Positions 1,891 to 48,499 of a stretch of 64,000 nucleotides of DNA are shown here, piece by piece. Within the stretch, counting starts at the first letter, position 1, and each line of letters opens with the position of its first letter. Under the pieces are notes generated by a model. The model saw only the letters and a list, made by a program, of their open reading frames with translations, did no database searches and was not told the DNA's origin. The stretch is from Bacteroidia bacterium. Its GTDB lineage: Bacteria; Bacteroidota; Bacteroidia; AKYH767-A; OLB10. The stretch spans positions 2,440 to 66,439 of the forward strand of contig JBBRAW010000006.1 in NCBI GenBank assembly GCA_038206385.1, written 5' to 3'. The position numbers and the translations under genes are program-made.

Positions 1891-1904
1891 AAGCAGAAAA
1901 TATT

Positions 1905-7312: not shown

Positions 7313-7364
7313 TTTCAAAACAATATCAATAATAGATTGTTCACTTCATCTAATATATAATTAA

Positions 7365-21299: not shown

Positions 21300-21311
21300 T
21301 GCATCAATTTA

Positions 21312-26718: not shown

Positions 26719-27807
26719 TTAAGTTGTTCGAACAGATTTTTGATTAATTCTTCCTCCCAATTTACCATAAATAAATGCCAATTTCGTCATGACCAAAGTG
26801 TTAATCGTTATCATACCAAGACAAATACTCATCAATAAAAATAAATTGATATTCATATTTCTGAATAAGATAGCGAATGAAATTATCATTAAATTAATTG
26901 CAACTATAATTGTTGTTGTCACTCTTTGTCCAAAACCTTGTGCTACTATCATGTGATGTACGTGATTTCTGTCTGCTTGCAGAGGAGAATTTCCTGTTAA
27001 GATGCGAATAACACATACGCGAATTACATCATATAAAGGAACAAATAATACTGCTGCAATAAGTGCTGGACTTACAAAATTCGCTTTTACATTGGGAATT
27101 TCTTTTATATCCAAAAGGTTAATCGCCAAAGTAGAAAGAAAAAACCCAATAATCAAAGACCCTGTATCACCCATGAATATTTTAGCAGGATGAAAATTGA
27201 ATTTTAAAAACCCTATAAGTGCTCCTGACATACAAAATGAAAGGATAGCATAATCAATATATTTAAATTGATAAAATAATCCTCCAAAAATCAATGATGA
27301 CATTAACCCTAAACTTCCTGCTAATCCATCAATACCATCAACAAGATTATATGCATTTGTAATACTAACTATAAATAAAATTGTTATAGTATATTGTAAC
27401 CAAATTGGTATTTCATAGATTCCTAATATTCCATACAAATTATTAATTCTTATTCCACCATAAGCAACAACAGCAGATGCAATAATTTGCAATACCAATT
27501 TTTTCTTTGCATTCATATCTAATAAATCATCAAAGAACCCAGTGAAAAAAAGTATTAATGATGCAGCAATTAGAAATTGAATAGTGTGCTCTGAAATCTG
27601 TTGACCTAAAAATAAATATGAAATTAAAATTCCAGCAAATATTGCTAGTCCTCCCATTGTAGGAATACTTTCTTTATGAACTTTTCGTTCATCAGTCTTT
27701 TCAAATAAATTCCATTTTTTACATACTTTAATCCATGAAGGAATTATAGTAAGAGTGATGGCAAAGGAAAATAAACTTGGTAAAATTATGGCTAATACAA
27801 AATTCAT
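26719..27807 (-). CDS. WecA/MraY-family undecaprenyl-phosphate sugar-1-phosphate transferase (initiating glycosyltransferase)
   Basis: Ten or more TM helices and the 'NAYNLVDGIDGLAGS' signature of Glycos_transf_4. Confidence 0.85.
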   Translation of the reverse strand: MNFVLAIILPSLFSFAITLTIIPSWIKVCKKWNLFEKTDERKVHKESIPTMGGLAIFAGILISYLFLGQQISEHTIQFLIAASLILFFTGFFDDLLDMNAKKKLVLQIIASAVVAYGGIRINNLYGILGIYEIPIWLQYTITILFIVSITNAYNLVDGIDGLAGSLGLMSSLIFGGLFYQFKYIDYAILSFCMSGALIGFLKFNFHPAKIFMGDTGSLIIGFFLSTLAINLLDIKEIPNVKANFVSPALIAAVLFVPLYDVIRVCVIRILTGNSPLQADRNHVHHMIVAQGFGQRVTTTIIVAINLMIISFAILFRNMNINLFLLMSICLGMITINTLVMTKLAFIYGKLGGRINQKSVRTT

Positions 27808-27810
27808 AGT

Positions 27811-30048
27811 TTAAGGTTTATTAATTTTTACTACATGGATTTCCACTCGACGATTATGTGACCGTCCTGCTTCAGCATTATTATTTGCTATTGGCATTGT
27901 CTCACCATAAGCAACAGTTACAATTCGATTTTCTGCTAATCCTTTCTTTATAAATATTGCTTTTACCTGATTCGCTCTTGCTTGTGAAAGGTTCATATTA
28001 AATGCAGCATCTCCTTCACCATCTGTATGACCTGTAATAACAAGTGTATAATTTGCATTATCATAAATACTATCTAACGCAGGTTCAATTACATCTAGTT
28101 TATAAATTCCTTTTACATCAATACTATTCGAAGCAAATTCTATGTTTTTTGATTCAACAAATACTGTAGAAGTTAATTCAGTTTCAGGACAACCTTTTCC
28201 TCCTATTTTTCCAGCTGCAAATGGACATGGATCAATTGCATCAATAATACCATCGCCATCCGTATCTGGACAACCATGCGTTTGTATTGACCCCTTAATA
28301 TATGGACACTCATCAACATCATCTAACACTCCATCATTATCACTATCCAAAATTATCACTGGTACTTCAACGATAATTGGAAGTGGAATAATTATAGGAA
28401 TAATTGTTCGTACAGGTTCAGCGTTAATTGATGTTGTTTGAAAAACAGATTTACTCGAGTCTTTCGATTTAATTTTTTCGATTTTTACTGGACATCCTTT
28501 TAACTTTTCTAAGCCTGCAACATTCTGACAAGCATCTACCTTATCTTGAATTCCATCATGATCACTATCAGAAATTACTTCTGGTTCATTAATAACAACT
28601 GGTTTTGAAATTAATATTGGAATAATTGATTTCTTTAATTTAACAAATTCATTCTTTGTTTGATTAATAATCGCACTAGGTTTTTTAGGTGTAATATTTT
28701 CAATTTTTGTTGGACAACCATTTAACGAAGCAATACCAACCACATTTGGACAATCATCATTCTTATCAGGAATACCATCTTTGTCGGTATCAAGAATTAA
28801 TTTAGGAATAGTGATTGACGTTGCAATAGGATTAACAACATTATTTGATGTTGGCTTTATTTCGGGTTTAATATCTGCCTTAACAATTTGCTTAGAGACA
28901 CTATTAGGGTTTAATTTCTTTACAATAATTTTCTTTACAGGACATCCATTTGATGATCCTAAACCTGGGATGTTTGGACATTTATCTTTTTTATCTTCGA
29001 TTCCATCTTTATCACGATCAAGAATTTTTTTACCATCAATAAGCTTCGATGATAACTTACTATCCTTCTCCTCTTTTTCTTTTTTAGATTTTGGTGTGGC
29101 TTTAATTTTAGCCTTTGGAATATACGTTAATGTAACTTCAAAAGCTCCCTGTCCACCTGTTAGTCCCGAAATATTTACATCATAACTAGCGCCCAACATA
29201 TAACTATTCCATTGGTAACCGACATAAGCAGAAACAGCATCTTTTTTGCGATGAAAAACACCAGCTTCAAAATGATTTCTATCTTGTAAAGGAACTTTAG
29301 CAATAATTCCATACATCAATTCTTTTGAGAACTGCTGTTGTTGATACATAAACATTGGAATTAAATCGAGCTGTTCATTAACATGAATTCCAACGCCACC
29401 TTGCATCACAATTTTTCTAGGAATAATATTCGTTGTTTCAATAAATGTTTCTTTAGATTGATTTATATGTTGAAATGACATTCCAAAATATGGATGATAA
29501 CTGTTTTCCTTTTTTTGACCGTACGTCCATAAAAACCCTAATCCAAAATCAGGTCGTATTAACTTTGTATATGAAAAAGTTTCGTTTGTTGCGTTAGATG
29601 AATTATATCCTTGATCAGGATTATATTGATCATCAAATGTCATTTTAGAAGGGTCAAAACTTTTTTGTATTAATCCCAATTGCACTCCACCAGCAATTTG
29701 ATGATTTCCTAAATTAGCACGATAAGACAACGTACCATTGATGTAAAGTTGACGAAACCCTGCATCACCAGATGTATTATTTATTAAAGTAGCACCTAAG
29801 CCAATTTTGCTTACTTGCTTATCAAAAAATACTGATTGCGTTACAAAAGGACTTGTTACACTTGCCCACTGATTACGATAAAGCATTGTTAACCGAATAT
29901 GTTCAACATTCTGACCAGCAGCTGCAGGATTATAATAGGTAGGTATGCGATGAAATTGTGTGAAATGAGGATCTTGAGCACATACCGATGTTACAAGCAT
30001 TAAAAATGCAAGTGAAAATTTTAAGATATGTTTAAAATATTGTTTCAT
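27811..30048 (-). CDS. PorP/SprF-family T9SS outer-membrane protein fused to thrombospondin-type-3 Ca-binding repeats and a C-terminal OmpA peptidoglycan-binding domain
   Basis: N-terminus 'AQDPHFTQFHRIPTYYNPAAAG' is the PorP/SprF signature. Four 'D-D-DGI-D--D-CP' TSP3 repeats. OmpA C-terminus 'GHTDGEGDAAFNMNLSQARA...NRRVEIHV'. Its stop overlaps the start of the upstream gene. Confidence 0.8.
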   Translation of the reverse strand: MKQYFKHILKFSLAFLMLVTSVCAQDPHFTQFHRIPTYYNPAAAGQNVEHIRLTMLYRNQWASVTSPFVTQSVFFDKQVSKIGLGATLINNTSGDAGFRQLYINGTLSYRANLGNHQIAGGVQLGLIQKSFDPSKMTFDDQYNPDQGYNSSNATNETFSYTKLIRPDFGLGFLWTYGQKKENSYHPYFGMSFQHINQSKETFIETTNIIPRKIVMQGGVGIHVNEQLDLIPMFMYQQQQFSKELMYGIIAKVPLQDRNHFEAGVFHRKKDAVSAYVGYQWNSYMLGASYDVNISGLTGGQGAFEVTLTYIPKAKIKATPKSKKEKEEKDSKLSSKLIDGKKILDRDKDGIEDKKDKCPNIPGLGSSNGCPVKKIIVKKLNPNSVSKQIVKADIKPEIKPTSNNVVNPIATSITIPKLILDTDKDGIPDKNDDCPNVVGIASLNGCPTKIENITPKKPSAIINQTKNEFVKLKKSIIPILISKPVVINEPEVISDSDHDGIQDKVDACQNVAGLEKLKGCPVKIEKIKSKDSSKSVFQTTSINAEPVRTIIPIIIPLPIIVEVPVIILDSDNDGVLDDVDECPYIKGSIQTHGCPDTDGDGIIDAIDPCPFAAGKIGGKGCPETELTSTVFVESKNIEFASNSIDVKGIYKLDVIEPALDSIYDNANYTLVITGHTDGEGDAAFNMNLSQARANQVKAIFIKKGLAENRIVTVAYGETMPIANNNAEAGRSHNRRVEIHVVKINKP

Positions 30049-32990
30049 TTAATTACCGTAACTGATCCTCTTAATTCTTCCGAAATATTTGCATTATCTA
30101 TTATTTGAATATGGTAAACGTACGTTCCATTTTGAACATTTTCTCCATTTACTTTGCCATCCCAATCTGGTCGAGATGCATCGGTTTGATAAATTAAAGT
30201 ACCCCATTGATCATAAATTTTCATTTGTTGAAATGTGAACTGGTCTCCTCGTACACGAAAAATGTCATTCTTACCATCTCCATTAGGAGTAAATGTTGTT
30301 GGAATAAATAATGAATTATTATTATGAATAGAAATAGTTCGCGCAAGGCTATCTCTACAACCATTATAATTTTCTGCGATTAAAATAACTTTATAATTTC
30401 CTATGCTTGAATACGTATATGTAGGATTAATAGCAGTACTACTATTTCCTGCAATTGTTGTGTCTCCAAAAATCCAAGTATAAACATTCGCATTTATCGT
30501 TGCATTTGTAAATGATGTAGGAAATTGTCCGACGAGAGGAGAAATAACTTGAGAGAAATCTGAAATAGGAGTAGGTAACGCAGTGATAGTAACTGTTGCT
30601 CTCTGTGTGGATGTGCAACCATTACTTCCAATCGATTCAATAAAATATGTTTTAGTAGTTGTTATAGGCTGCGTTTGAAAATTATCAGAAACAAGTATCG
30701 ATGTTCCTCCAGTTGCTGTTGAATACCAAGAATAATTTATTCCTATTTGATGTCTTAATTGCAAATCAACAACTGATCCTACACAGACTGATGAATCAGA
30801 AATAGATACTATTGGTGGTGAAGGCAAAACATTAACGAGTACTGAATCAGAATAAACCGTTCCATTATTTTGTGCGATTCCAACTTTATAATATCCACTA
30901 TCGATAGCCACAAACTGTTGCCCCGTTGCTCCATTAATTGCTAACCCATTATAAAACCATTGATTCCCTGTTGGGAAGATGGATGATAAAACAACATTAT
31001 TCCCCTCACAAAAACTTGTTAGTCCATTTGCTGAGATTATCGAACTGGATGTTATCACTATAACTTGAACAACATTCGACTTCGTAACGCAACCGTTGCT
31101 ACTTGTTGCATTCACAAAATAATTTCCACTACTTTTTATATAAATTGCATTTCCATTTAGTGAATTTGACCATAGGTAATTATTGCCTCCTGAAGCGGTT
31201 AATAAAACAGAATCACTCTGTATAATTGTTACGATACCTGCTGGATTTATATTTGGAATTGTAATAATGTAGTTATTGATTGTAGTTGGAGTAGAAACTG
31301 CAGAACATCCAAATGAATTTGTTACTGTTACCGAATAAACACCTGCAGGAATTGTTATGCTTTGCGATGTTGATCCATTCGACCATTTCCATGAAGTGCC
31401 TAAAGATGCAGTTAACATTATCGAATCATTCGGACAAACAGAATTTGATGTTGTTGAAATTGTTGCAGCTGGTTTTGTTTGAAGAGTAATTATTATTGAA
31501 CTTGATTGACCTTTACATCCATTCGAATTTGTTACAGTAACAGAATATGTTCCTGCAGATGAAACATAAATATTTGAAGTAGTATTTCCATTAGACCAAG
31601 CATAAGAGTTTCCTGTTTGTGTAGATAATTTTACAGAATCTCCTTGACAAATAGTAGTTCCATTGCTGGAAGTTAGAGTTGGAATAAATGTTGGCAAAAC
31701 AGTTATAGAAATAATATTAGAACTTGCCGTTGCTCCATTAGAATCAAATGCAGTACATATTAAATTATGAGTTCCTGATGGTAACGGTGCAATTGAAATT
31801 ATTCCATTAATCGAACTGCCGAGTATGGATGATCCTTCCTTGATTGTATAATTTGTTAAGTTGTTTGGAGATGCATTCAAATGAACACTATCTCCAGCAC
31901 AAACTGTTGCACTTACATTAGCAGTCAATACAATTGAAATTAATGATTGCGAAGTGATTTTTCTAATTAAATGATTATTGCAATCTGCAACATATAAACA
32001 CCTATCAAATCTATTGTAGGTTATTCCTGCTGCGTTATTAAATCGTGCTGCTGCACCAACTCCATCTACTGCACCGCTCAATAGTGGAGTTCCAACATAG
32101 GTAGAGACTACACCATTATTTGCAATCTTTCTAACAGTGAAATTAAATCCATCTAAAACATAAATATTATTCATGCCATCCACAGCAATGTCCCACGGAT
32201 AATTAAATTGTGATGTTAATGCAGTGCCATTAATACTTCCTATAATTCCTTGACCAGCAAAAGTGCTAACCATTCCAGCTGGTGTTATTTTTCGAATTAT
32301 ATTATTCCATTCATCTCCAACAATAATGTTTCCATTATTATCTAATTCAATTCCGTAAGGATGATTAAACGTTGCTGCTAATCCTAATCCATCAAGTGCA
32401 CCTGCAATATAAATTGTTCCTGCAAAAGTTGTTACTTGACCATTAAATATTTTTCTAATTACATGTGTATTATAATCTGCTACATAAATAATACTACCAT
32501 CCTCTGTTACTGTTATCCCACTTGAAAATCCAAATTTAGCAACGTTATTTGCGCCATTAGTTGTTCCAAATATTCCAGTACCTGCGATAGTTGTTACATT
32601 TCCTGTTGCATCAATTTTTCTGATTTTATAATTCTTAGTATCGGCAACAAATATATTTCCTAGTGTATCGCATGTAATTCCCCAAGGCTCATTAAACGTA
32701 GCTACATTACCAGCCCCATCCGTACTTCCTACCGCACCTGTTCCTGCCAATGTTGATACAATACCAGAAGTTGTTATTTTACGAATAAGATTATTGTAAC
32801 GATCAGTGATATAAATATTTCCTGATTTATCTGATGTGATTCCATGTGGATTATTAAATCTTACAAGATTACCAATACCATTTGTTGTTCCTACAACTCC
32901 TGCACTTCCAGCAATAGTAGTAACTACTTGAGCATTCATTTCTGAAATCTCTAGCAGAATAAATAATGTTATTAGTAACAGTTTTCTCAT
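30045..32990 (-). CDS. T9SS type-B C-terminal-domain cargo protein with NHL-repeat beta-propeller(s) and Ig/PKD-like domains
   Basis: Signal peptide. About ten 'G..G..DG.G..A.FN.P.GI..D..GNIYV.D..N..IRKI' NHL repeats. Several Ig-like Cys-containing domains. C-terminal 'FIPTTFTPNGDGKNDIFRV' gliding-associated type-B CTD. Confidence 0.8.
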   Translation of the reverse strand: MRKLLLITLFILLEISEMNAQVVTTIAGSAGVVGTTNGIGNLVRFNNPHGITSDKSGNIYITDRYNNLIRKITTSGIVSTLAGTGAVGSTDGAGNVATFNEPWGITCDTLGNIFVADTKNYKIRKIDATGNVTTIAGTGIFGTTNGANNVAKFGFSSGITVTEDGSIIYVADYNTHVIRKIFNGQVTTFAGTIYIAGALDGLGLAATFNHPYGIELDNNGNIIVGDEWNNIIRKITPAGMVSTFAGQGIIGSINGTALTSQFNYPWDIAVDGMNNIYVLDGFNFTVRKIANNGVVSTYVGTPLLSGAVDGVGAAARFNNAAGITYNRFDRCLYVADCNNHLIRKITSQSLISIVLTANVSATVCAGDSVHLNASPNNLTNYTIKEGSSILGSSINGIISIAPLPSGTHNLICTAFDSNGATASSNIISITVLPTFIPTLTSSNGTTICQGDSVKLSTQTGNSYAWSNGNTTSNIYVSSAGTYSVTVTNSNGCKGQSSSIIITLQTKPAATISTTSNSVCPNDSIMLTASLGTSWKWSNGSTSQSITIPAGVYSVTVTNSFGCSAVSTPTTINNYIITIPNINPAGIVTIIQSDSVLLTASGGNNYLWSNSLNGNAIYIKSSGNYFVNATSSNGCVTKSNVVQVIVITSSSIISANGLTSFCEGNNVVLSSIFPTGNQWFYNGLAINGATGQQFVAIDSGYYKVGIAQNNGTVYSDSVLVNVLPSPPIVSISDSSVCVGSVVDLQLRHQIGINYSWYSTATGGTSILVSDNFQTQPITTTKTYFIESIGSNGCTSTQRATVTITALPTPISDFSQVISPLVGQFPTSFTNATINANVYTWIFGDTTIAGNSSTAINPTYTYSSIGNYKVILIAENYNGCRDSLARTISIHNNNSLFIPTTFTPNGDGKNDIFRVRGDQFTFQQMKIYDQWGTLIYQTDASRPDWDGKVNGENVQNGTYVYHIQIIDNANISEELRGSVTVIK

Positions 32991-34180
32991 GCTACTTTAC
33001 GTTTCTCCATTGTTACAGAAAGAATTTTTTCTTCTTGCTGATGCGAAATCCTTTCCGTTAATTGTTCAACAACTGAAATATCTTCGCCTTCAAATGCCAT
33101 TGCATATAAACTTGTAATTCTTTTCCACGTATATTTTTCTTTTGCGAAATTCTCTAAATTATTTGCGATTTCATTTCGCTTTGTACTACTTAGATTTTTA
33201 ATAATTTCCACTAAATCATCAACATTTCCAAAATAAATTGCATTGTGTCCTGTGGTTTCTCTGTTATATGATATGTCAAATGCTACTACAGGCAATCCTA
33301 GTCCCATAGCCTCTACTAAAGAAGGGTTTGTACCTCCAGCACTATGCCCATGCACATAAAGTGCAGCATTCGATCTTAAAACATTTAAAGCGTGTTGATC
33401 ATAGATGGGATCCAAAAGATAAATGTTAGAAAAATCATTATATTTTTTCCTTAATTGTATTCCATAAGTTCCATGATCCCATAAACCAACAACTACAAGA
33501 AGATGATTGGGGTTCTTTGAAAATGCTTCAAGTATTACGTGAACATTGTTTTCAGGTTCTATACGACAAACATTGAAAGCATAAGACTTATCCAAGAAAT
33601 CGTATCGCGCTAATGTGTCAGATGTCTTATCCTGTTTTGTTACATGATCTGATCCATACTCAATTAACCAAGCATCATGTCGATCATATTCCGCTTCAAC
33701 ATATTCTCTAATAATTCTATTATCGGTTATAACAGTATCTGCTAATCGTACAGCAATTTTTTCAGACAATCTTAATATCTTTTTTGCTATCCAATTCCAC
33801 TTCGGTCTCTTCCATTCTTGTCCATCAATATTTATAAGAATAGGTTTTTTCGTAAACAACTTTACAAAAGGAAGAATTATTGCACCTGAAACACCCAACA
33901 TTAAAAGGACATCACTATTACGTAATGCATGAAAAACTGAACAAATATCATAAATGATACTCTGATAACCATTCGCATTAAATGGCAGATAAACAAGTTT
34001 AGCTCCTTTAAAATATTTTGGTCTTGATGCCTTTTTAGCAAAATATTTATTGCTACAATAAACAGTTATTTCAAAACGATTATTTAATCGATCTACAAGA
34101 TGATGCGTTAATGTTTCAAAGCCACCATATTTTGCCGGTAAGCCAGTTGTGCCTATAATTGCAACGCGTTTAGTGCGCAT
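32987..34180 (-). CDS. family GT4 (GT1-fold) glycosyltransferase with DUF1972-type N-terminus
   Basis: 'VAIIGTTGLPAKYGGFET' N-terminus and a C-terminal Glycos_transf_1 EX7E region. Confidence 0.85.
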   Translation of the reverse strand: MRTKRVAIIGTTGLPAKYGGFETLTHHLVDRLNNRFEITVYCSNKYFAKKASRPKYFKGAKLVYLPFNANGYQSIIYDICSVFHALRNSDVLLMLGVSGAIILPFVKLFTKKPILINIDGQEWKRPKWNWIAKKILRLSEKIAVRLADTVITDNRIIREYVEAEYDRHDAWLIEYGSDHVTKQDKTSDTLARYDFLDKSYAFNVCRIEPENNVHVILEAFSKNPNHLLVVVGLWDHGTYGIQLRKKYNDFSNIYLLDPIYDQHALNVLRSNAALYVHGHSAGGTNPSLVEAMGLGLPVVAFDISYNRETTGHNAIYFGNVDDLVEIIKNLSSTKRNEIANNLENFAKEKYTWKRITSLYAMAFEGEDISVVEQLTERISHQQEEKILSVTMEKRKVA

Positions 34181-34459
34181 ACTAGAGTGGATGAATTTTG
34201 GTAATTAAATACTTAACAGTATACTTAAAACGTCTGGAAATGTCTTTCAAAAAATTATATAAAACCACATTTGTAAGGAATTAAAAATATGTTGTATTAA
34301 ATAAAACATCTATGCTTCACAAAAGATTGATTCTCAATAAAAAAATATATTTCCACTTTATATAAACTCTAAATTATTATGTAAGAAATTTTCATTTCTC
34401 GTGCACTTTCAGTACAACTGTTCCTTTTGATATTATCTTTTAAAAATCTTACAACAATC

Positions 34460-35548
34460 TTATAAAAGTCCTATCACTGAGTTTACTTGATTTTGTAAAT
34501 TTTGAGAGGTAAATTTTTTAGAAGTCAACTTTGCTCCTGAAGATAAATTTACACATTTGAGTTTGTCAGTTGCCAAACTTTCAAGTACCTGATCTAGTTC
34601 CTTTATCTTTCGCACATCAACAGTAAATCCATTAAGACCTGATTTAACAAACTCCGATGGTCCGCCAACAGGAGGAGCAATTACTGGAACGCCATAACAC
34701 ATCGCCTCCAATAAGGTTAATCCAAATGTTTCTACACACCACCCTGGATTTGTAAGATTAACTACAAGACTTGCTCGTTGATAAAAAGGGTGAAGATTTT
34801 TTTGAACAGGATAAATAAATAGATTAGCTGATAAATCTTCCTCGACAAAAAATTGTTGAATATCTAAATCCGATGCATTTAACACCAATTCAAATTTCAA
34901 TGTGGGATGACGTTGTGCTAATGAAATAAATTCATGAACTCCTTTGTACGTCTTTAAAGAACAAACCATCAAAACACAAAATTTATCGTGTTGTAAATGA
35001 TGATAACTGAACCCTTCCGATTGCTCCACAAATTCATCGGGAAGTGCATTGTAAATTACATGTGACTTAACATTTTTTAAATGCTCTACTTCTAATAAAT
35101 AATTGGAAACATAAAGAACATTATTCGCTGTCGAAGAGGCTACATACCGTAGAAACATTTTTAACAGTTTTGGCTGAATATAACTTTCATGCAAATGATA
35201 AATAATTTTTTTACCTGTAATTTTTCCAGCTAGTGCTGCTCCAAATGGTAACAATGTATTTACATAAATAATTACATCTTCCTTTCGATACTTTAATATT
35301 TGAAAAAACAAAATAATTTGACTTATGATAAACAATATTAATCTGCCATAAACATTAGAAACAAATTGATAAGGAAAATATACTACTTTAGATTTAATTC
35401 TACTTAAAAATCCTTCTCGATTTTTAGAGGTATGCAATATAATTTCGTAACCGGCCTTTTGTAATCCTTCTAATGCTTGGATAAAAACAAGAGGGCTACC
35501 ACTAAAGTCGTTTAGTAAATGAACTGCAACAATTTTTTTCATTTTCAT
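34460..35548 (-). CDS. family GT4 glycosyltransferase
   Basis: GT-B fold with a C-terminal 'ETFGLTLLEAMCYGVPVIA' Glycos_transf_1 motif. Confidence 0.8.
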   Translation of the reverse strand: MKMKKIVAVHLLNDFSGSPLVFIQALEGLQKAGYEIILHTSKNREGFLSRIKSKVVYFPYQFVSNVYGRLILFIISQIILFFQILKYRKEDVIIYVNTLLPFGAALAGKITGKKIIYHLHESYIQPKLLKMFLRYVASSTANNVLYVSNYLLEVEHLKNVKSHVIYNALPDEFVEQSEGFSYHHLQHDKFCVLMVCSLKTYKGVHEFISLAQRHPTLKFELVLNASDLDIQQFFVEEDLSANLFIYPVQKNLHPFYQRASLVVNLTNPGWCVETFGLTLLEAMCYGVPVIAPPVGGPSEFVKSGLNGFTVDVRKIKELDQVLESLATDKLKCVNLSSGAKLTSKKFTSQNLQNQVNSVIGLL

Positions 35549-35559
35549 TTAAAGAATGA

Positions 35560-36819
35560 TTAACTAGCTTTTGGTAGTAATGACTCGTACACATCTCTTA
35601 GACGTTCTCCTCTCAAATTCCAATCAAATTTTGTTTTAAATGTTCTTATTGCTCCTTCCGACAATTCATTGTATCGAACTTTATCATTATGTAATAATGT
35701 TAATGCTGCTGAAAAATGGGTGATGCTTGAATCATATCTTCCATATGGAACAGTAATGCCACACGATGAATCGATAAATTCACCAGGACCTTCATTTCTA
35801 AAACATAATACCGGAACACCAAACGATAAAGCTTCAGCAATGACCATCCCAGCTCCTTCATGAGATGGAAATAGAAATACTTTAGACTTCAAATACAATT
35901 TTTGAAAATCACTTCTGTGAAGCCACTCAATAAATTGTACTGCATCGCCTAACTCTAATTCATTTACTAACCTTTGCAAGTATGGTTTACTTGGTCCGTC
36001 GCCAACTAATATTAATTTAGCTTTCAACTTATCTGAAATAGGAAGTTGATGATAAAATCGAGCGAAGGATTTTATAGTAATATCAAATCCCTTTAATGGT
36101 ACGAATCTTCCTGCTGAAAGAACAATAAATCTGTCATCTAAATTAGAAGAATTAAAAAGTGAGTTATGCGCTTCGGAACTAACTGAAGGCATGTGAATAG
36201 TTTGCTTTTGTGTAAGATGAAGCATCTTGGCAACTGTAGAATTCATTGTTAAAACAGCATCGGCATGTTGAACAGTTTGTCGAAGGAAAGGATCAACATT
36301 CCAAAAATATTTTTTTATCATCCATTTAATTTGTTCAACAATATATGTTTTCCTTCCATAAACATGCAAAACATAATCTTTAGGAATTCGAGGGTGATGT
36401 CCAATAGGTCCCCACACAAAAGGTTTTTTTAAAACCCATAACCTTGATGGAGTCCAATCATTATGGAAATTTAAATTATGAACAATATCAAAGTGGAGAT
36501 TTTTTCTTTTTATATAATACGGTAAAAAATATTGCCATAAATAATAATAGGGCAATGCACCTCTGCTTCCTTTTTTCCAAAAGCGCATCCAATACGGTAA
36601 ATCAAAATAAATAAATTGAATATTTTTATAATATTCAGAAGGATGATCGATCATATATCTTTCGATATCTGTTCGTGTATTTTTTCTTACAACTGCAATG
36701 ATCTTATTGAATCGTGCAATCTGATTTATAAAATTCCATCCCATGCCATCTTCCGAACCATGATAGGGATTTACTGCATACGCACTCAATAAAATAGTAT
36801 TTACTTTTGTTGTATTCAT
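35560..36819 (-). CDS. family GT4 glycosyltransferase
   Basis: C-terminal 'HEGAGMVIAEALSFGVPVLC' Glycos_transf_1 motif. Confidence 0.8.
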   Translation of the reverse strand: MNTTKVNTILLSAYAVNPYHGSEDGMGWNFINQIARFNKIIAVVRKNTRTDIERYMIDHPSEYYKNIQFIYFDLPYWMRFWKKGSRGALPYYYLWQYFLPYYIKRKNLHFDIVHNLNFHNDWTPSRLWVLKKPFVWGPIGHHPRIPKDYVLHVYGRKTYIVEQIKWMIKKYFWNVDPFLRQTVQHADAVLTMNSTVAKMLHLTQKQTIHMPSVSSEAHNSLFNSSNLDDRFIVLSAGRFVPLKGFDITIKSFARFYHQLPISDKLKAKLILVGDGPSKPYLQRLVNELELGDAVQFIEWLHRSDFQKLYLKSKVFLFPSHEGAGMVIAEALSFGVPVLCFRNEGPGEFIDSSCGITVPYGRYDSSITHFSAALTLLHNDKVRYNELSEGAIRTFKTKFDWNLRGERLRDVYESLLPKAS

Positions 36820-36837
36820 TATTTCTTAAATATAATT

Positions 36838-37569
36838 CTATCCTGCCATTTTCATTGATGAAATCATTTCTTCTGTTGCATTTCTATTTCGAATAACTTT
36901 AGCTGGAACGCCACCAATTATCGAATTCGGTTGCATATCTTTCGTTACAACTGCACCTGCAGCTATTACACAATTTTCTCCAATAGTAACTCCATCTAGA
37001 ATCGTCACCTTTGCACCTATCCAACAGTTACGACTTATATAAATTCCTTTTCTACTTACAGGTTGAAGTCGTATCAATTCATCATTCACATTAAATGAAT
37101 GGTTTTCTGGATGACAACTAAAATAGGGTCCGATGATACAATCATCATCGATTGTTAATCCTCCTGCTCCACCTAAATGTGCAAATTCGCCAATACCAAC
37201 GTGCTTACCAATTCTAATAAATTCTCCTAGTTCATTGAAAGAGAATGAAACTTTCAAATAAGAATTACCACCAATCCATGAGTGATCGTCAATAAAAAAA
37301 CCTTGCTTACCATTGGCAATAATTTGAACATTGTCACCGATTTGTATGGCTTTACCATAATGAAAAAACTTTTTCCCAATAATATTTACATTGTTCCCAA
37401 GGAAAATAAATTTATTCGGACTAAAAATATTAATCATCTTTAACCCACGTAAAAGAGCCATTGTTTTCGACCATAGAAAAGAATACATCATTGCATCATC
37501 CACATTTTTATCAAGTGTGAATGATGGATTTTTTTTTCTCCCAAGGTATGTTACAAGGCACTTTAACAT
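36838..37569 (-). CDS. hexapeptide-repeat (left-handed beta-helix) acyl/acetyltransferase, WcaF/CysE-like
   Basis: Repeated [LIV]-G-x-x-x-x hexapeptides ('IGDNVQIIANGK', 'IGAKVTILDGVTIGENCVIAAGAVV'). The track start at 37668 overlaps the upstream gene, so an internal ATG (37569 or 37491) is more likely. Confidence 0.75.
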   Translation of the reverse strand: MLKCLVTYLGRKKNPSFTLDKNVDDAMMYSFLWSKTMALLRGLKMINIFSPNKFIFLGNNVNIIGKKFFHYGKAIQIGDNVQIIANGKQGFFIDDHSWIGGNSYLKVSFSFNELGEFIRIGKHVGIGEFAHLGGAGGLTIDDDCIIGPYFSCHPENHSFNVNDELIRLQPVSRKGIYISRNCWIGAKVTILDGVTIGENCVIAAGAVVTKDMQPNSIIGGVPAKVIRNRNATEEMISSMKMAG

Positions 37570-37570
37570 A

Positions 37571-38326
37571 TTATATTTTCCAAAATGTCGTTTGACAAAC
37601 AAAGAATGCCATAGGTGAAAATCCAGAAAACTTATGCATTTCTTTTCCTTCCAATAAATTAGCTCCATTCCAATTTACTGGATTATCACTATTATCTAAT
37701 ATTAACCAACCACCTGGTTTAATTTTTTTAAGCGCAGCGCGAATACAATCATTCCGTCGTGTAAAATCATTCATTGAATCAATTAAAACGATGTCAAAAT
37801 ATTCATCATCTAAACGTTTAAGATCAGTGATGGTATCGCTGCCTTGCATAACATTTAGATTGAATCGACTTTCATTGTATTTTTCTGGATTAGAATGGAC
37901 CTTAGAAATAATCATCTGAGCCCATTCGATATTATGTTCGTAAGTAACAAGATTAACTCCTTTATCCAAAAACCATAAAGAGCTATTTCCACCTCCTAAT
38001 TCTAAAACTCTCATACCAGGTCGAACTATACCAGATAAATATTTTATAGCATCTAGAACAATAAAAGGAACAGGATTTTTCATGATTGGAGAAGTACGTG
38101 CTTGCATATACGTCTTCATAATATACGGCAATCGAGAGACGCTATAAAGTGAAGGGAAATTTCCCTCGTAATCCGTAAAACGTAAGCTAGCCTTCAATTT
38201 TTCAATATGACCATCATCACACTCCCACTTTAAAGTTGTGCGTCCCAATAATCTATCGATAACAGGCTTTTCATAACTTGATTGAACAGTGTTTTGATTT
38301 GGTGCTGTAAAATTTTGACGTTTCAT
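37571..38326 (-). CDS. class I SAM-dependent methyltransferase
   Basis: Motif I 'VLELGGGNSSLWF' and an acidic motif 'DIVLIDS'. Confidence 0.75.
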   Translation of the reverse strand: MKRQNFTAPNQNTVQSSYEKPVIDRLLGRTTLKWECDDGHIEKLKASLRFTDYEGNFPSLYSVSRLPYIMKTYMQARTSPIMKNPVPFIVLDAIKYLSGIVRPGMRVLELGGGNSSLWFLDKGVNLVTYEHNIEWAQMIISKVHSNPEKYNESRFNLNVMQGSDTITDLKRLDDEYFDIVLIDSMNDFTRRNDCIRAALKKIKPGGWLILDNSDNPVNWNGANLLEGKEMHKFSGFSPMAFFVCQTTFWKI

Positions 38327-38350
38327 GGATATAATTTATGTTAAATTATT

Positions 38351-39655
38351 TCAAAGTGTTGCCGAAATACATTCTTTCATTACAAGATCGAGTGTATGAT
38401 TAAGATCGGTATTATTAATAACCATATATTGTTGTTTACTTCCTGATTTACTAAGGTCTTCAAACAACTCCTTGTATTCAGCGGTTAGATTTTGAATGTC
38501 AATACTGCTTAATTCACGTTTACGGCTAAGAATAATTTCAGGAGCAGCATACAGAAATACATTCACATTCGGTTTAAAAAGAAAATAATAAAATAAGCGA
38601 AGAAAGCTTTTCGGTAAAACAATATTTGAACGTTTCGAATCAATAATAAAATCAAAATAATATCGATCATACAACACAGTGTAACCTCTTAATGTATATT
38701 TGAAATAAATGTAATATTGTCCGAATAAATAATCTAAATAATAGTATAGAAACCGAATCAGTGAACTAAGTTTATTCGTATTACTTCCTTGTCGTGGTAG
38801 CTGATTTATTGTTCTCATTTCTGCACTCCTTTTTCCATAACGAATGGAACTAAGAATTGGAAGTAATGATGGACGATGACGTAAAACCTTTACGCGTTGT
38901 CGATATTTTATTTGTAAGCTATCGCGAACACTTTCTAATAATGTTGATTTTCCAGCACCATCAACTCCGCTAAACGTTACAACAATTCCACGATTGTGGA
39001 TCATGTCTCGAAATACATCTGTTATGTATCTTAAAAATTTTATTGCGCGAAAAACTTTATGGTTATCTGAATGTTCAAGTATTTTTTGAATTATCTTTTT
39101 TGATTCTCTTTCGGAAGTAACGAATAATTCGTCTAATGTATTTAAATGCAATTTGTACTTGTGACAGATGTAGCCGAAAATTTCACTTCTTTCCTCTTTA
39201 CTTAAAGAGGTATAATACTGAACATAGCGATCAGGTGTATTAGCTTTGTTTATTAGATTAAAAAGTACAATATATTCGTAATTGTGTTTTAATGCAGCAA
39301 CTTTTATATTCTCCTTTGAAATAATAACATGATTTAGGATATCTTTTGCCTCTAGATAAATAATCCCTTTTCTATCGAAACGATGTATAAGATCTACCTC
39401 TAAGTATGTTCCATCCTTAAAAGAAATATTTACAAATGTTACAAATGATTTTTTATAAACATGAACCCATTCAATATTATCTCCAGCGCGAATTAATTTA
39501 AGAAATTTTATTTTTTCGCTTTCCTTAATTAATAAGTCGATGTCAGAGGAAGTTGGTATTTCATCAATAAATTCATGCGTGAATTTTAACAAAGCGTATC
39601 GAAAATCCGAAGCTCCTTTAAAAAAGTAATGCAAAAATTCTTTTCGATGACTCAT
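38351..39655 (-). CDS. two-domain protein: N-terminal minimal-nucleotidyltransferase-like domain and C-terminal P-loop kinase-like domain
   Basis: 'IPTSSDIDLLI' resembles the GS...[SD]DIDL NTase-fold motif. 'VVTFSGVDGAGKSTLLESV' is a Walker A of thymidylate/deoxynucleoside-kinase type. No glycosyltransferase features. Confidence 0.55.
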   Translation of the reverse strand: MSHRKEFLHYFFKGASDFRYALLKFTHEFIDEIPTSSDIDLLIKESEKIKFLKLIRAGDNIEWVHVYKKSFVTFVNISFKDGTYLEVDLIHRFDRKGIIYLEAKDILNHVIISKENIKVAALKHNYEYIVLFNLINKANTPDRYVQYYTSLSKEERSEIFGYICHKYKLHLNTLDELFVTSERESKKIIQKILEHSDNHKVFRAIKFLRYITDVFRDMIHNRGIVVTFSGVDGAGKSTLLESVRDSLQIKYRQRVKVLRHRPSLLPILSSIRYGKRSAEMRTINQLPRQGSNTNKLSSLIRFLYYYLDYLFGQYYIYFKYTLRGYTVLYDRYYFDFIIDSKRSNIVLPKSFLRLFYYFLFKPNVNVFLYAAPEIILSRKRELSSIDIQNLTAEYKELFEDLSKSGSKQQYMVINNTDLNHTLDLVMKECISATL

Positions 39656-41037
39656 ACGTTGGTCGCTGAATTATCAGCAATATGTGTTATGTCTTCAAGA
39701 GCTTCTAGCCACGCATCCATCATCCATTGACTCTGCGTTAGCAATTCAGTTTCATTAATATATTGCCGTAAATAATAACTTACATTAAACAAAAGATACA
39801 AACGATAATTTAATGCTGTATTAATTTTATACTTATGAACGATCTGCTTGATGAGAGGTGTTTGTTGCCATTTTTGTACTGACTTTATTACATCATTATA
39901 TTTTTTTTGATGCTGAAGAATTGTTGATTGAAAAGTGAAGTGGTATAAATCGAACAACATTGGGATTCCGTTTCGAGCTAATTCCCAATCATAAACATAT
40001 AAACGTTGATCATCACAATACATATTCCAAGGAGTGAAGTCGCCATGAGAAACAGAAACTGCGATTTCATCTGTTACAGAAATACTATTGTAAACTTTTG
40101 TAAGTAAATAAATAATTCGCTTTGTCTTGGCCGTATTTAGTCCATTTGAAAATAGCAATTCTTGTTTTAAGAATTCCATGTTGTTGATGATGGTATGCCA
40201 TGCAACACTTTCCATTATCATTTTACGTTCATGACTAATATTATACAATTCTGCCATCACCTTTGCGTGAATTGAGGTAATACGATCTGCCGAAATCACA
40301 ATGCCCGGCTTCACATTACTGATACGCGCATTTCCATTAATCTTCTTCGAGAGTTTCGGTAGACTTAATGTTGTGAAATCATATTTTCCAAGCGCAGTAA
40401 GCATTTCTATTTCGTTTTGTACTAGTGACTTTGAATGTTTTGTTAGTGGGATTTTCACAAAGCCTGAACAGCTTGATTTATCGTGAATTTCCATTACCGT
40501 TTTGCGAGTTGCTCCTCTTGTTCCAGTGAAGAATGATACAGATTCATGTTGCATCACTCCGTTAAGTTGTTTTACTCGTTCTAGTAGATTTTGTTGCAGA
40601 TAAATAACCCCAGAAGCAAGTCGTTGCTCTTGCCCAATTTTCCACGCTAGGTGGCTAAGTTTTTTATAAAACCTTCCCTTCCAAGTTGCTGTATTGTAGA
40701 GTGATAAGTATCCCGCATGTTTATCGTCAGCTAGAAAAAGCCAACGCATCGTACCATCAGGATTATTAATAAAATAAATTTTTATTGTTTCTTCTCCAAT
40801 AGAAAGTCCCGCATAAAGCGCATTTTCAACGTTACCATCGGGATTAAAACCAGAAGTTAAATCGACATAAAACAAAGTCTCATCTTCTTGAAATATTGGT
40901 TCTTGCAATAGTCGAAAATCAATGTTCTGAGCGACCGTTAATCGGTGATAAGGATCAAAAATGGCAAGTGTTTTCTTCTCAGGCGAAAAAATATCACGCA
41001 GCAGAACTAGATCGGAAAGATATATAGGTTTTTGCAT
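39652..41037 (-). CDS. aminoglycoside/choline-kinase-like (APH-fold) phosphotransferase with an unrecognised ~200-aa N-terminal domain
   Basis: Catalytic loop 'SHGDFTPWNM' and 'VYDWE' (H-G-D-x4-N ... D) typical of the APH/ChoK family. The track start at 41073 overlaps the upstream gene by 80 nt, so an internal ATG (41037) is used. Confidence 0.6.
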   Translation of the reverse strand: MQKPIYLSDLVLLRDIFSPEKKTLAIFDPYHRLTVAQNIDFRLLQEPIFQEDETLFYVDLTSGFNPDGNVENALYAGLSIGEETIKIYFINNPDGTMRWLFLADDKHAGYLSLYNTATWKGRFYKKLSHLAWKIGQEQRLASGVIYLQQNLLERVKQLNGVMQHESVSFFTGTRGATRKTVMEIHDKSSCSGFVKIPLTKHSKSLVQNEIEMLTALGKYDFTTLSLPKLSKKINGNARISNVKPGIVISADRITSIHAKVMAELYNISHERKMIMESVAWHTIINNMEFLKQELLFSNGLNTAKTKRIIYLLTKVYNSISVTDEIAVSVSHGDFTPWNMYCDDQRLYVYDWELARNGIPMLFDLYHFTFQSTILQHQKKYNDVIKSVQKWQQTPLIKQIVHKYKINTALNYRLYLLFNVSYYLRQYINETELLTQSQWMMDAWLEALEDITHIADNSATNV

Positions 41038-43424: not shown

Positions 43425-43500
43425 AATACCATTTATACGTAAGATTTATGGATTAGTTTAATAAAAATCTTACATTATAAAATCACAGAAATTGAAAAAG

Positions 43501-44763: not shown

Positions 44764-44769
44764 ATACTT

Positions 44770-47073: not shown

Positions 47074-47075
47074 AA

Positions 47076-48085: not shown

Positions 48086-48469
48086 TTATAATAACTGTCC
48101 CACTATTTTTCTATGAATACCTTCTTTAATAAGATTAACATTAAAGTTCACAAGTATTGCCAGCTTCATGTTTGTTAATTTGAGATAAGTCAACACCGTT
48201 TTATGATGAACTTTTTCAAGGTGTTCCACCGATTTAATTTCAACTATTAATTTGTTTCCCATAATTATATCAGCTCTAAATCCAATATCAAGAACTGTGT
48301 CTTCATAATTCGCTACAATACCTTGTTGCCTTGTAAACGCAATACTTCGCTTATCTAATTCGTAAGCAAAAGCTGCTTCATAAACACTTTCAAGTAAGCC
48401 TGGCCCAAGTGTAGTATGTATTTTATAGCAAATATCAACGGCGATAGTAGCCAATTCGTTTTCTGTCAT
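48086..48469 (-). CDS. GxxExxY family protein (PD-(D/E)XK-like)
   Basis: 'GPGLLESVYEAAFAYEL' (the GxxExxY motif) and a downstream '..DIIMGNKLIVEIK' core. Start taken at the internal ATG 'MTENELA'. Confidence 0.8.
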   Translation of the reverse strand: MTENELATIAVDICYKIHTTLGPGLLESVYEAAFAYELDKRSIAFTRQQGIVANYEDTVLDIGFRADIIMGNKLIVEIKSVEHLEKVHHKTVLTYLKLTNMKLAILVNFNVNLIKEGIHRKIVGQLL

Positions 48470-48499
48470 AATTAATTTTAAGTTTACAAATAAAGCAAA

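Follow-up and report, generated by a model that had tools for sequence, protein, structure and literature searches.

A type B T9SS cargo and a PorP/SprF-OmpA fusion carrier encoded in a Bacteroidota polysaccharide cluster: a probable wall-anchored surface fibre

Two adjacent minus-strand genes lie at the end of a polysaccharide cluster of a Bacteroidia bacterium, between a Cps2T-like DUF1972 glycosyltransferase (DUF1972 GT) and a WecA-like initiating transferase. We analysed them within a window of 64,000 nucleotides, the whole stretch of DNA under study, to which all positions refer (Table 1). The first gene of the pair encodes a protein with an NHL propeller, Ig-like domains and a type B T9SS C-terminal domain (CTD), hereafter the cargo, and the second a PorP/SprF-family protein fused to an OmpA-type domain, hereafter the carrier. 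Both reading frames have the coordinates and lengths (981 and 745 aa) given in a preliminary description of this locus, which had also claimed an ATGA overlap at two junctions. Both overlaps are present: the stop codon of the DUF1972 GT and the start of the cargo share ATGA at 32987-32990, and the cargo stop codon (30045-30047) forms part of a 4-nt ATGA overlap with the start of the carrier (30045-30048). The carrier stop codon (27811-27813) is followed after 3 nt by the start of the WecA-like gene. From the overlaps, we infer that transcription presumably runs on across these gene junctions. The same description had placed the pair in one operon with the WecA-like gene and three GT4 enzymes. 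Of the GT4 genes, coupling is found for the DUF1972 GT only; the number of GT4-type transferases in the cluster is four, next to the WecA-like enzyme, and the DUF1972 GT is the first gene past a 279-bp gap. Because this gap splits off the other GT4 genes, a single GT4 is demonstrably coupled to the pair.

Table 1. Genes, protein regions and neighbouring features of the locus, with their positions in the window.
Feature	Positions	Strand	Remarks
WecA/MraY-family polyprenyl-phosphate sugar-phosphate transferase	26719..27807	(-)	362 aa; PF00953 143.5 bits
Carrier (PorP fusion) reading frame	27811-30048	(-)	745 aa
Carrier: OmpA_C-like peptidoglycan-binding domain	27814..28161	(-)	residues 630-745
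Carrier: periplasmic K/I/P-rich linker with five TSP3-type calcium-binding motifs	28162..29112	(-)	residues 313-629
Carrier: signal peptide and PorP/SprF-family outer-membrane beta-barrel	29113..30048	(-)	residues 1-312
Cargo reading frame	30045-32990	(-)	981 aa
Cargo: type B T9SS C-terminal sorting domain	30048..30320	(-)	residues 891-981
Cargo: stalk of about 7 Ig-like/PKD beta-sandwich domains	30321..31940	(-)	residues 351-890
Cargo: NHL beta-propeller head, six blades	31941..32930	(-)	residues 21-350
Cargo: signal peptide	32931..32990	(-)	residues 1-20; hydrophobic N-terminus MRKLLLITLFILLEISEMNA, followed by QVV
DUF1972/GT4 glycosyltransferase	32987..34180	(-)	397 aa; Pfam DUF1972 91.5 bits, and Glycos_transf_1
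Intergenic region before the DUF1972 GT	34181..34459	(-)	279 bp; conserved TGTAAG / C(T/G)TACAA motifs
Upstream part of the cluster, 5' end of transcription first	34460..47831	(-)	Pfam and NCBIfam matches

In the order of transcription, the upstream part of the cluster encodes a Wza-like short OPX protein, Wzc, a Wzx-like protein, a GT4, a Wzy_C protein and an APH-like protein, followed by a dTMP-kinase-like protein, a methyltransferase, a hexapeptide acetyltransferase and two further GT4 enzymes. The WecA-like protein (PF00953), the four GT4s, Wzy_C, Wzz with a P-loop kinase domain, and Poly_export with SLBB all score above their Pfam cutoffs, and the flippase candidate falls below its own (22 bits against 28.2). 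All NCBIfam matches of the polysaccharide proteins stay below the equivalog cutoffs. Thus, the best match of the DUF1972 GT is the beta-1,4-rhamnosyltransferase Cps2T at 195 bits (equivalog cutoff 500), and the WecA-like protein reaches 161 bits with TIGR02380 (WecA), for which the cutoff is 326. The Wza-like protein is short (251 aa), consists of Poly_export and SLBB only and shows a weak likeness to the short OPX protein EpsY. As judged from these matches, the cluster looks like a Wzx/Wzy-type system, in which the WecA-like and Cps2T-like enzymes resemble those of the first two steps of the pathway.

The 279-bp region is probably the regulatory region of a sub-operon comprising the DUF1972 GT, the cargo, the carrier and the WecA-like gene. 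When ten orthologous gaps were aligned, TGTAAG was invariant and C.TACAA nearly so, and CCTTACAnTGTAAG palindromes are present in the gaps of some related loci. Three half-sites lie in the gap of the window, across which their frequency is at background level. No Rfam family matched anywhere in the window, and therefore the gap is devoid of any known riboswitch or leader. A promoter/terminator scan returned 62 promoter-like sites against 61.5 expected, with a sigma-70 consensus that is unfit for Bacteroidota.

The domain composition of the cargo agrees with the preliminary description, as its NHL, Ig-like and type B CTD regions all exceed the HMM cutoffs. Its N-terminus is modelled by AF2 as a helix (residues 2-15) within the predicted Sec signal peptide, and the predicted mature N-terminus is Gln21 (preceded by ..MNA), a residue that is invariant across 56 orthologues. 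The head contains six discernible NHL repeats (PF01436, 104.9 bits, cutoff 20; TEN_NHL, 73.6 bits). A sequence search of the PDB matched it with teneurin-like, SOQ1 and NHLRC2 NHL domains, and Foldseek placed its AF2 model (pLDDT 91-98) close to the NHL domains of NHLRC2, SOQ1 and TRIM71 (TMt 0.80-0.89). We also considered an enzyme signature in the head and rejected it, the Pfam matches being sub-threshold or restricted to one blade and the PDB and fold searches giving NHL domains of the binding type. The head is a symmetric propeller of the canonical NHL kind. It carries no feature suggestive of glycan binding, and among solved structures those nearest to it bind proteins or RNA, observations that speak against a polymer role. 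The stalk that follows includes an Ig_7 domain at residues 723-806 (PF19081, 75 bits) and a PKD_4 domain at residues 822-884 (32.8 bits). It is all-beta in the AF2 model (pLDDT 74-92), and its top Foldseek matches are the fragments 9flp and 9fly of the GhpA grappling-hook fibre. The type B CTD (residues 896-978) matches TIGR04131 at 70.3 bits (cutoff 35) and PF13585 (CHU_C) at 65.1 bits (cutoff 27). Across the orthologues, the head (mean identity 61%) and the CTD (65%) are the most conserved parts, and the stalk is lower than both ends (33-54%). Cargo length ranges from 974 to 1012 aa in homologues; length and head sequence are under strong constraint. The structure prediction of the NHL/Ig region that had been proposed as a check shows the expected propeller head and beta-sandwich stalk, and the full model comprises a six-bladed propeller, this stalk and the CTD (pLDDT 88).

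In the carrier, the barrel region (residues 7-309) matches TIGR03519 at 183.9 bits (cutoff 90.55) and PF11751 at 152.6 bits (cutoff 22.3). Its AF2 model has 14 strands at residues 51-309, mostly with pLDDT 80-91, and resembles the 14-stranded OmpG (TMt 0.65); SprF has likewise been described as a 14-stranded barrel (PMC9143113). The linker matches TSP3 (PF02412) at 58 bits (cutoff 25) and contains D.D.DG..D..D.C motifs at residues 344, 420, 494, 568 and 595. Residues 319-563 are predicted to be disordered, with pLDDT below 50 except in the motif segments. Tandem Repeats Finder, run on the gene pair, detected no DNA-level repeat beneath the spacing of about 75 aa between TSP3 motifs, and the repeats are therefore old and diverged. 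Among 39 aligned carrier homologues, the length varies from 549 to 848 aa and the number of TSP3 motifs from 0 to 11. [quoted passage not shown] The residues predicted to bind peptidoglycan, L687, R691 and N732-R733-R734, are invariant across the 39 homologues, and residues 568-741 align with 5wtl, a solved protein with TSP3 and OmpA_C (E 7e-43). Against the PorE family NF052230, the OmpA_C part alone matches (38.2 bits, cutoff 600), and neither the profile search nor the AF2 model reveals the TPR, beta-propeller or CRD parts of PorE. The carrier would work like the wall anchor of PorE, yet it is not a PorE.

All four families for which profile searches had been suggested (type B CTD, PorP/SprF, TSP3 and OmpA) were thus recovered above their curated cutoffs. 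The fusion itself had been described as carrying four TSP3 repeats and as unusual. Its domains were recovered as described; the motifs number five, and the architecture turns out to be common, as it occurs in over 100 clusters at 90% identity, which combine either PF11751, PF02412 and PF00691 or PF11751 and PF00691. One such fusion carrier lies away from any EPS locus, and its cargo is another protein, with SprB repeats.

The arrangement of the window recurs in about 35 loci of uncultured Bacteroidota, the lowest PorP identity among them being 28%. Three independent queries, one each with the PorP fusion, the DUF1972 GT and the cargo, sampled these loci and agreed in their results; loci with an identical order were found through each of them, the DUF1972 GT query covering 29 species-level genomes. 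In nearly all related loci the DUF1972 GT lies directly upstream of the cargo, and in most of them the WecA-like gene comes next after the carrier. The carrier gene is directly 3' of the cargo in every related locus long enough to show this. Among related loci, GT-cargo and cargo-carrier junctions that overlap or closely abut are seen repeatedly. The gene order of the upstream part of the cluster also recurs in related loci. The embedding of the pair in a polysaccharide locus, as put forward in the preliminary description, is therefore real and not a chance insertion. The triad of DUF1972 GT, cargo and carrier is kept although the remainder of the cluster is rearranged in the loci L004, L037 and L029, and at least three independent rearrangements (L004, L036 and L037) have left the pair next to either the DUF1972 GT or WecA. 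In L029, we considered and rejected an autonomous GT-cargo-carrier operon, since a DDE transposase lies directly upstream and the missing upstream cluster is therefore a secondary rearrangement. The sole exception to the joint occurrence is L030, the most divergent orthologous cluster, where the DUF1972 GT is followed directly by WecA. The pair is therefore not core to the pathway. Neighbours without a plausible role, namely the genes for an M28 peptidase, a CN-hydrolase and an aminotransferase, share this synteny in many loci, and the conserved adjacency therefore reflects in part plain collinearity within the lineage. The window, L030 and L037 encode Wza and Wzc within the cluster or close to it, and L004 has Wzc and Wzx nearby. 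The organisms carrying the locus come from activated sludge, lakes, groundwater and soil. As all of them are uncultured, tests are limited to heterologous or meta-omic approaches.

Several characterised systems share parts of this organisation. In Flavobacterium johnsoniae, Fjoh_3952 depends on its cognate carrier and is seen in static foci, taken by the authors as a sign of wall anchoring, and its operon includes a PorE-like gene (PMC12618676). The Fjoh_3952/Fjoh_3951/Fjoh_3950 operon and four sister operons have the same order as the locus described here, from cargo to porP/sprF-like carrier to OmpA_C function. However, the anchor is here fused to the carrier, whereas in F. johnsoniae it is the separate PorE-like protein Fjoh_3950; moreover, the cargo head is here an NHL propeller and the genes lie within a polysaccharide cluster. 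Non-mobile type B cargo has been placed on wall-bound PorP-PorE-like complexes (PMC9143113). As in PG1035-PorP-PorE of Porphyromonas gingivalis, a type B cargo would here sit on a PorP barrel bridged to peptidoglycan by OmpA_C (PMC9143113). Unlike PorP and PorE of P. gingivalis, which are core T9SS components required for general secretion, the present pair looks like an accessory cassette, with a covalent linkage and with one of several carriers per genome. The Aureispira GhpA/GhpB/GhpC system also combines an Ig-like T9SS fibre and a distal binding head with an outer-membrane and periplasmic basal body, and anchoring of the GhpA fibre by homologues of PorP (GhpB) and PorE (GhpC) has been proposed. 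GhpA, however, exceeds 5000 aa, is heptameric and ends in hooks, whereas the cargo has 981 aa, an NHL head and no sign of oligomerisation; in addition, GhpB and GhpC are separate proteins, and carrier and anchor are here a single polypeptide.

The pair is also akin to SprB/SprF, in that the cargo has a CTD of the type B family, the carrier belongs to the PorP/SprF family and the carrier gene comes downstream. The periplasmic tail of SprF is short and bears a Cys-X-Cys motif, through which SprF is linked by a disulfide to GldK of the moving track (PMC12635249). In contrast, no C-X-C motif follows the barrel in the window protein or its 38 homologues, and all 39 fusion proteins have the wall anchor instead. 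The periplasmic region of outer membrane protein A (OmpA) of Capnocytophaga gingivalis (5wtl), the top structural match, likewise has two TSP3 motifs beside OmpA_C. That module does not belong to a PorP/SprF carrier, and the carrier studied here adds three TSP3 motifs, about 75 aa apart, in its linker. PEP-CTERM/exosortase surface proteins are encoded in EPS loci as well, for example the NHL protein ScyF. The NHL head reaches 78 bits with the ScyF NHL model of NCBIfam, under the equivalog cutoff of 350. A C-terminal sorting signal and a genetic tie to exopolysaccharide loci are common to both, by analogy only, as the exosortase machinery and the phyla are wholly different.

The domain memberships, gene overlaps, predicted folds and conserved synteny of this locus point to a T9SS type B substrate and its dedicated PorP/SprF carrier, which probably form a static, cell-wall-anchored surface fibre co-expressed with the polymer. 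We regard the pair as dedicated because the carrier gene overlaps and follows that of the cargo, as in verified cognate pairs (PMC12618676). Going by what is known of these families, both proteins would be exported by Sec, with Gln as the mature N-terminus of each. The 14-stranded PorP-like barrel would enter the outer membrane, and its periplasmic extension, made of the flexible linker with TSP3 calcium motifs and of OmpA_C, would attach to peptidoglycan. The T9SS translocon would then recognise the type B CTD of the cargo, which would be passed to the cognate barrel and kept on the surface. Since the carrier would be fixed to the wall and has no counterpart of the Cys-X-Cys link between SprF and the GldK track, the fibre is predicted to be immobile and would take no part in gliding. 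The six-bladed propeller would be displayed at the tip of the stalk of about seven Ig-like domains and act inside the polymer layer, most likely by binding or tethering the polymer or a partner surface. A role in binding or processing polysaccharide is plausible, with no sign of an enzyme. The stronger proposal that the NHL fibre is the dedicated partner of the polymer, installed by the T9SS, anchored to peptidoglycan and capturing, tethering or organising a Wzx/Wzy-type polymer at the surface, is one that we put forward tentatively and consider rather doubtful.

Instead, the pair may be a frozen hitch-hiker, that is, a generic type B adhesin/carrier cassette that an ancestor acquired between the DUF1972 GT and wecA. 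Lacking its own promoter and lying in a collinear region, it would have been retained, and it would share expression with the polymer genes without a functional tie to the polymer. This explanation deserves real weight, although we do not favour it. It is consistent with the direct succession of DUF1972 GT and WecA in the outgroup L030, with the equal synteny of the unrelated M28, CN-hydrolase and aminotransferase neighbours, with the other cargo served by PorP-OmpA fusions elsewhere and with the lack of a glycan-related signature in the NHL head. However, a passive passenger fits less well with a pair that stays beside the DUF1972 GT or WecA through at least three rearrangements and down to the lowest PorP identity sampled, with the recurrence of overlapping or abutting junctions and with the strong constraint on cargo length and head sequence. 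A further rival takes the NHL protein for a secreted enzyme of the propeller type (lyase, esterase or lactonase), by which the polysaccharide would be trimmed or modified extracellularly. Blades of the head do bear a weak likeness to Arylesterase (27 bits), SGL (20 bits) and Vgb_lyase (20.6 bits), some sources label homologues as 'sugar lactone lactonase YvrE' or 'streptogramin lyase', and H176, E227, W228, Y121 and K122 are invariant and blade-specific. Yet SGL and Vgb_lyase remain under their Pfam cutoffs, the Arylesterase match spans one blade, and most invariant residues (D, N, R, G) recur in each blade, as expected of a structural repeat and not of a single active site. Moreover, non-catalytic NHL modules rank first in sequence as well as in fold comparisons, and a wall-anchored head on a stalk of about seven domains fits binding better than diffusion-limited catalysis. 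We therefore hold an enzymatic role to be unlikely.

The cargo could also be the glycosylation target of the cluster, as an S-layer-like glycoprotein, with the Wzy_C protein acting as an O-oligosaccharyltransferase or ligase and not as a polymerase. The Wzy_C family takes in ligases and O-OTases, GhpA bears O-glycans, and the set of GTs is conserved between species, which is unusual in capsule loci. The mature cargo contains 8 sequons of the form D(S/T)(A/I/L/V/M/T) against 3.6 +/- 1.8 in shuffles, a number reached by 2.4% of the shuffles, and four of these Bacteroidota O-glycosylation sequons each recur in 44 or more of 56 orthologues. However, structure may account for the conservation of these sequons, because several fall in the 'GDSV.L' strand of the Ig-like repeats, and a general Bacteroidota O-glycosylation system could serve them. 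The Wza, Wzc and Wzx genes in or near the clusters point to polymer export, and the cluster persists in L030 without the cargo; all this makes the target reading improbable. Finally, the PorP-like barrel might be the outer-membrane conduit for the Wza-like protein in a composite translocon, to which the NHL protein would be accessory. Short OPX proteins of Myxococcus systems require a separate barrel; the Wza-like protein is short and weakly EpsY-like, and the carrier is the only outer-membrane beta-barrel that the cluster encodes. Known partner barrels are, however, 18-stranded and of a family other than PorP/SprF, the barrel gene lies 17 kb from wza, and the L030 locus has Wza and Wzc with no such barrel. 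As clear PorP/SprF membership directly after a type B cargo already explains the barrel, we give this reading hardly any credence.

Returning to the static surface fibre, the carrier is a one-polypeptide form of the published static anchoring complex of cargo, PorP-like and PorE-like proteins. As a natural fusion of PorP/SprF to OmpA_C, it provides independent Rosetta-stone support for the PorP-PorE contact and for the model in which non-gliding cargo is held by the wall. The wall anchor of the fusion, set against the twin cysteine of SprF, offers an easy rule for telling static from mobile type B adhesins by their sequence. A tie between a polysaccharide cluster and a type B cargo/carrier pair seems not to have been described before, and literature searches on PorP with thrombospondin and OmpA, and on T9SS with NHL repeat and exopolysaccharide, returned nothing relevant. 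If the link is functional, it would represent an unrecognised way to organise a polymer at the cell surface, in organisms that matter for the formation of flocs and biofilms. Should the fibre prove to be the partner of the polymer, Bacteroidota would gain a protein-based means of capsule or matrix retention, and a bridge between the T9SS and exopolysaccharide.

Our analysis substantiates the overall observation of the preliminary description, namely that a T9SS cargo gene and a gene for a PorP fusion protein lie as a pair within a polysaccharide locus. Both frames were recovered exactly as described. The cargo carries the expected type B T9SS C-terminal domain (CTD; TIGR04131, 70.3 bits against a cutoff of 35; PF13585, 65.1 bits against 27). 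Its neighbor is a PorP/SprF protein (TIGR03519, 183.9 bits against 90.55) whose proposed extension was likewise recovered, the TSP3 repeats scoring 58 bits (cutoff 25) and the OmpA domain 62 bits (cutoff 27). The TSP3 repeats had been put at four; their presence holds, but we count five D.D.DG..D..D.C motifs. The proteins of this locus belong to the PorP/SprF family and to the type B substrate family, and the reading of the pair as T9SS cargo and carrier is well supported.

Genes of the polysaccharide cluster and its neighborhood, all on the minus strand, in order of transcription
Feature	Coordinates	Strand	Remarks
Short Wza-like OPX, 251 aa	47076-47831	-	Poly_export + SLBB; weak likeness to short OPX EpsY
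Wzc	44770-47073	-	
Wzx-like protein	43501-44763	-	weak match
GT4	42303-43424	-	
Wzy_C protein	40994-42313	-	
APH-like protein, 473 aa	39652-41073	-	overlaps dTMP-kinase-like gene
dTMP-kinase-like P-loop protein, 434 aa	38351-39655	-	overlaps APH-like gene
Methyltransferase	37571-38326	-	
Hexapeptide acetyltransferase	36838-37668	-	
GT4	35560-36819	-	
GT4	34460-35548	-	
Intergenic gap, 279 bp	34181-34459	-	
DUF1972 glycosyltransferase (GT)	32987-34180	-	nearest model beta-1,4-rhamnosyltransferase Cps2T, 195 bits, below equivalog cutoff
Cargo, 981 aa	30045-32990	-	
PorP fusion, 745 aa	27811-30048	-	
WecA-like transferase (WecA/MraY family)	26719-27807	-	nearest model WecA, 161 bits, below cutoff
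M28 peptidase	25233-26600	-	

The pair had been assigned to a single operon with the WecA-like transferase and the GT enzymes. Both ATGA overlaps (DUF1972 GT/cargo and cargo/PorP fusion) are indeed present, and 3 nt separate the PorP-fusion stop from the start of the WecA/MraY-family gene. The remaining glycosyltransferases, in a departure from the preliminary description, are set apart by the 279-bp gap from the block running from the DUF1972 GT to WecA. Because the GT on one side resembles Cps2T and the transferase on the other resembles WecA, the pair would be wedged, by family resemblance, between the enzymes that start repeat-unit assembly with its first and second steps. Proteins of the short OPX class probably depend on a separate outer-membrane barrel, and the cluster encodes no barrel candidate for its short Wza-like protein besides the PorP fusion. 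The APH-like and dTMP-kinase-like genes (38351-41073) are kept in every orthologous cluster, including the outgroup L030, in which the pair is missing. At the cluster head, wza is immediately preceded by genes for a PD-(D/E)XK_3 protein and for a restriction endonuclease of the BsuBI/PstI type together with its Eco57I/N6 methylase (48086-51481, minus strand).

The gap 5' of the DUF1972 GT measures about 260-330 bp in the loci compared (the window and the related loci L001-L006, L012, L014, L020 and L022). In its alignment, TGTAAG is invariant and lies shortly after the stop of the preceding gene, and C(T/G)TACAA is also kept, roughly 95 nt ahead of the GT start. Some loci contain a tight palindrome, CCTTACAnTGTAAG. 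These conserved elements look like an operator or a hairpin; searching the gap against Rfam returned no matching family. Regulators are abundant in the window (16-12397 and 20652-23186). The set comprises sigma-54 and a sigma-54 activator response regulator, a hybrid PAS kinase, a CheB-CheR-PAS-histidine kinase fusion of 1252 aa, and a TPR/HisKA_3 kinase encoded together with a LuxR-type regulator within a few kb 3' of the cluster.

To assess whether the pair travels with the polysaccharide locus, a check proposed in the preliminary description, related loci were sampled in three independent ways, using PorP-fusion homologues, the DUF1972 GT and cargo orthologues. The pair accompanies the locus in all three samplings. 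PorP-fusion homologues at 87, 61, 50, 44 and 43% identity lie in loci that reproduce the gene order seen here all the way from the APH-like gene to the M28 peptidase and that encode a cargo of 981-983 aa. This order recurs around two cargo orthologues located on long contigs. The GT scan, restricted to one genome per species, yielded 29 loci, all from uncultured Bacteroidota. By tblastn mapping, the cargo and PorP fusion genes lie directly 3' of the GT in every sufficiently long locus but one. This sole exception is L030, which diverges most of all the loci and whose GT is 52% identical; here, a WecA fused to a response-regulator receiver domain lies directly 3' of the GT, which looks like the state preceding insertion of the pair. 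In L030 (11076-12869), this fusion is followed by a phosphodiester glycosidase (NAGPA) and a TPR histidine kinase. Rearranged loci add further information. In L004 the Wzx and Wzc genes are located elsewhere; L036 keeps cargo, PorP fusion, WecA and M28 together without the DUF1972 GT; and L029 lacks the upstream cluster and has a transposase at the breakpoint. In L037 (28% PorP identity) the GT-cargo-PorP triad is kept, with two regulator genes, an Hpt protein and a sigma-54 response regulator, between the triad and Wza-Wzc-Wzx-GT-Wzy. Several loci also show collinearity of the M28, CN-hydrolase and aminotransferase genes; ordinary synteny thus accounts for part of the signal. Altogether, the link between the pair and the polysaccharide cluster is robust as a genomic association, and functional coupling is putative. 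In L040 (6325-8670), a fusion of the two GT4 genes that precede the gap encodes one 781-aa protein, and in L032 (7100-8617) the DUF1972 GT is closely preceded by a gene for a second protein with 30% identity to the cargo C-terminal half. Three MAG records titled 'Bifidobacterium' (L015, L016 and L033) carry this Bacteroidota-type T9SS/polysaccharide locus, and their labels look wrong.

The structure prediction proposed for the NHL/Ig region was run with an alignment of 56 cargo orthologues. The model (mean pLDDT 88) comprises a propeller (residues 20-350), about seven beta-sandwich domains and the CTD. In the sequence, six NHL repeats (PF01436, 104.9 bits) precede a long all-beta region with an Ig_7 match at residues 723-806 and a PKD match at 822-884. 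In Foldseek, the stalk best matches fragments of GhpA, the grappling-hook fibre that Aureispira secretes through the T9SS. For the head, the matches are the non-catalytic NHL domains of SOQ1, NHLRC2, TRIM71 and Thin (target-normalised TM 0.80-0.89), and a PDB sequence search returned the same NHL families. Neither sequence, PDB nor fold searches of the cargo gave anything pointing to catalysis in the head. Mean identity to the window protein is highest in the head (61%) and the CTD (65%) and lowest in the stalk (33-54%), which fits a fibre with specific partners at both ends. Most invariant head residues recur in each blade and are structural; Y121, K122, H176, E227 and W228 are blade-specific and could form a binding site. 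The mature cargo contains 8 Bacteroidota O-glycosylation sequons, compared with 3.6 +/- 1.8 in shuffles. Those at residues 108, 593, 715 and 880 are well conserved. Hence, the cargo may be a glycoprotein, as GhpA is, although the sequons do not establish this cluster as the glycosylating system. In both proteins a Gln follows the predicted signal peptide, hydrophobic in the cargo: Gln21 of the cargo (32928-32930) and Gln25 of the PorP fusion (29974-29976). Each is invariant in its orthologue alignment, which fits the Bacteroidetes 'Q-rule' of pyroglutamate N-termini.

The PorP fusion is modelled as a barrel of 14 strands within residues 51-309, a linker with pLDDT below 50 across residues 319-563, except around the TSP3 motifs, and, at residues 630-741, a confidently predicted OmpA_C fold. 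With an even number of strands, both barrel ends would lie on the periplasmic side, from where OmpA_C should be able to reach the cell wall. Residues 568-741 match the solved TSP3 and OmpA_C region of Capnocytophaga OmpA (5wtl; E 7e-43), and the OmpA_C model superposes on the domains of OprF, Pal and AbOmpA and on the PorE C-terminal domain. Moreover, the family's peptidoglycan-binding residues are invariant in 39 homologues. The PorP fusion is not a PorE family member, since the PorE model (NF052230) scores 38 bits against a cutoff of 600 and aligns with the OmpA_C part alone.

[quoted passage not shown] Five operons of F. johnsoniae each bring together genes for a cargo, an SprF-like and a PorE-like protein, and Fjoh_3952 forms static foci only (PMC12618676). 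In Aureispira, PorP and PorE homologues follow GhpA and were proposed to make up its basal body. The gliding adhesin's carrier, SprF, is linked to the moving track by a disulfide between GldK and a Cys-X-Cys motif in the SprF periplasmic tail (PMC12635249), whereas none of the 39 fusion proteins examined has this motif past the barrel. Its absence argues that the locus would be a compact, fused form of the static type B cargo/carrier class, and family knowledge makes a static, wall-anchored mechanism a strong inference for the pair. The organism also has SprB-type adhesins, as an open frame of at least 1190 aa (60348-63998, plus strand) that runs past the window end encodes a signal peptide, a CUB-like domain and at least nine SprB repeats (PF13573, 204 bits); this product, too, is probably a large surface protein of type B.

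The fusion architecture had been considered unusual, which proved wrong as to frequency. More than 100 clusters at 90% identity share PF11751 and PF00691, most of them carrying PF02412 as well, and where sources name these homologues it is mostly as plain 'PorP/SprF family protein'. Among the 39 aligned homologues, total length ranges from 549 to 848 aa and TSP3 number from 0 to 11, the usual state being two motifs adjoining OmpA_C; the three additional motifs of the window protein are common to its 87% relative only. A distant fusion in L038 (2912-12382; 25% identity, 793 aa, eleven TSP3 motifs) is not part of a polysaccharide locus and lies 3' of a type B cargo of 491 aa with SprB repeats. 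Its surroundings include a true PorE-like gene (TPR/Kelch/PD40/OmpA) 5 kb upstream, so fusion carriers and PorE-like proteins can coexist in one genome. We found no description of the PorP-TSP3-OmpA fusion in the literature searched. Its abundance, together with the different cargo and context in L038, indicates that the fusion is a recurrent carrier type rather than an oddity of this locus, undescribed and mechanistically informative although frequent.
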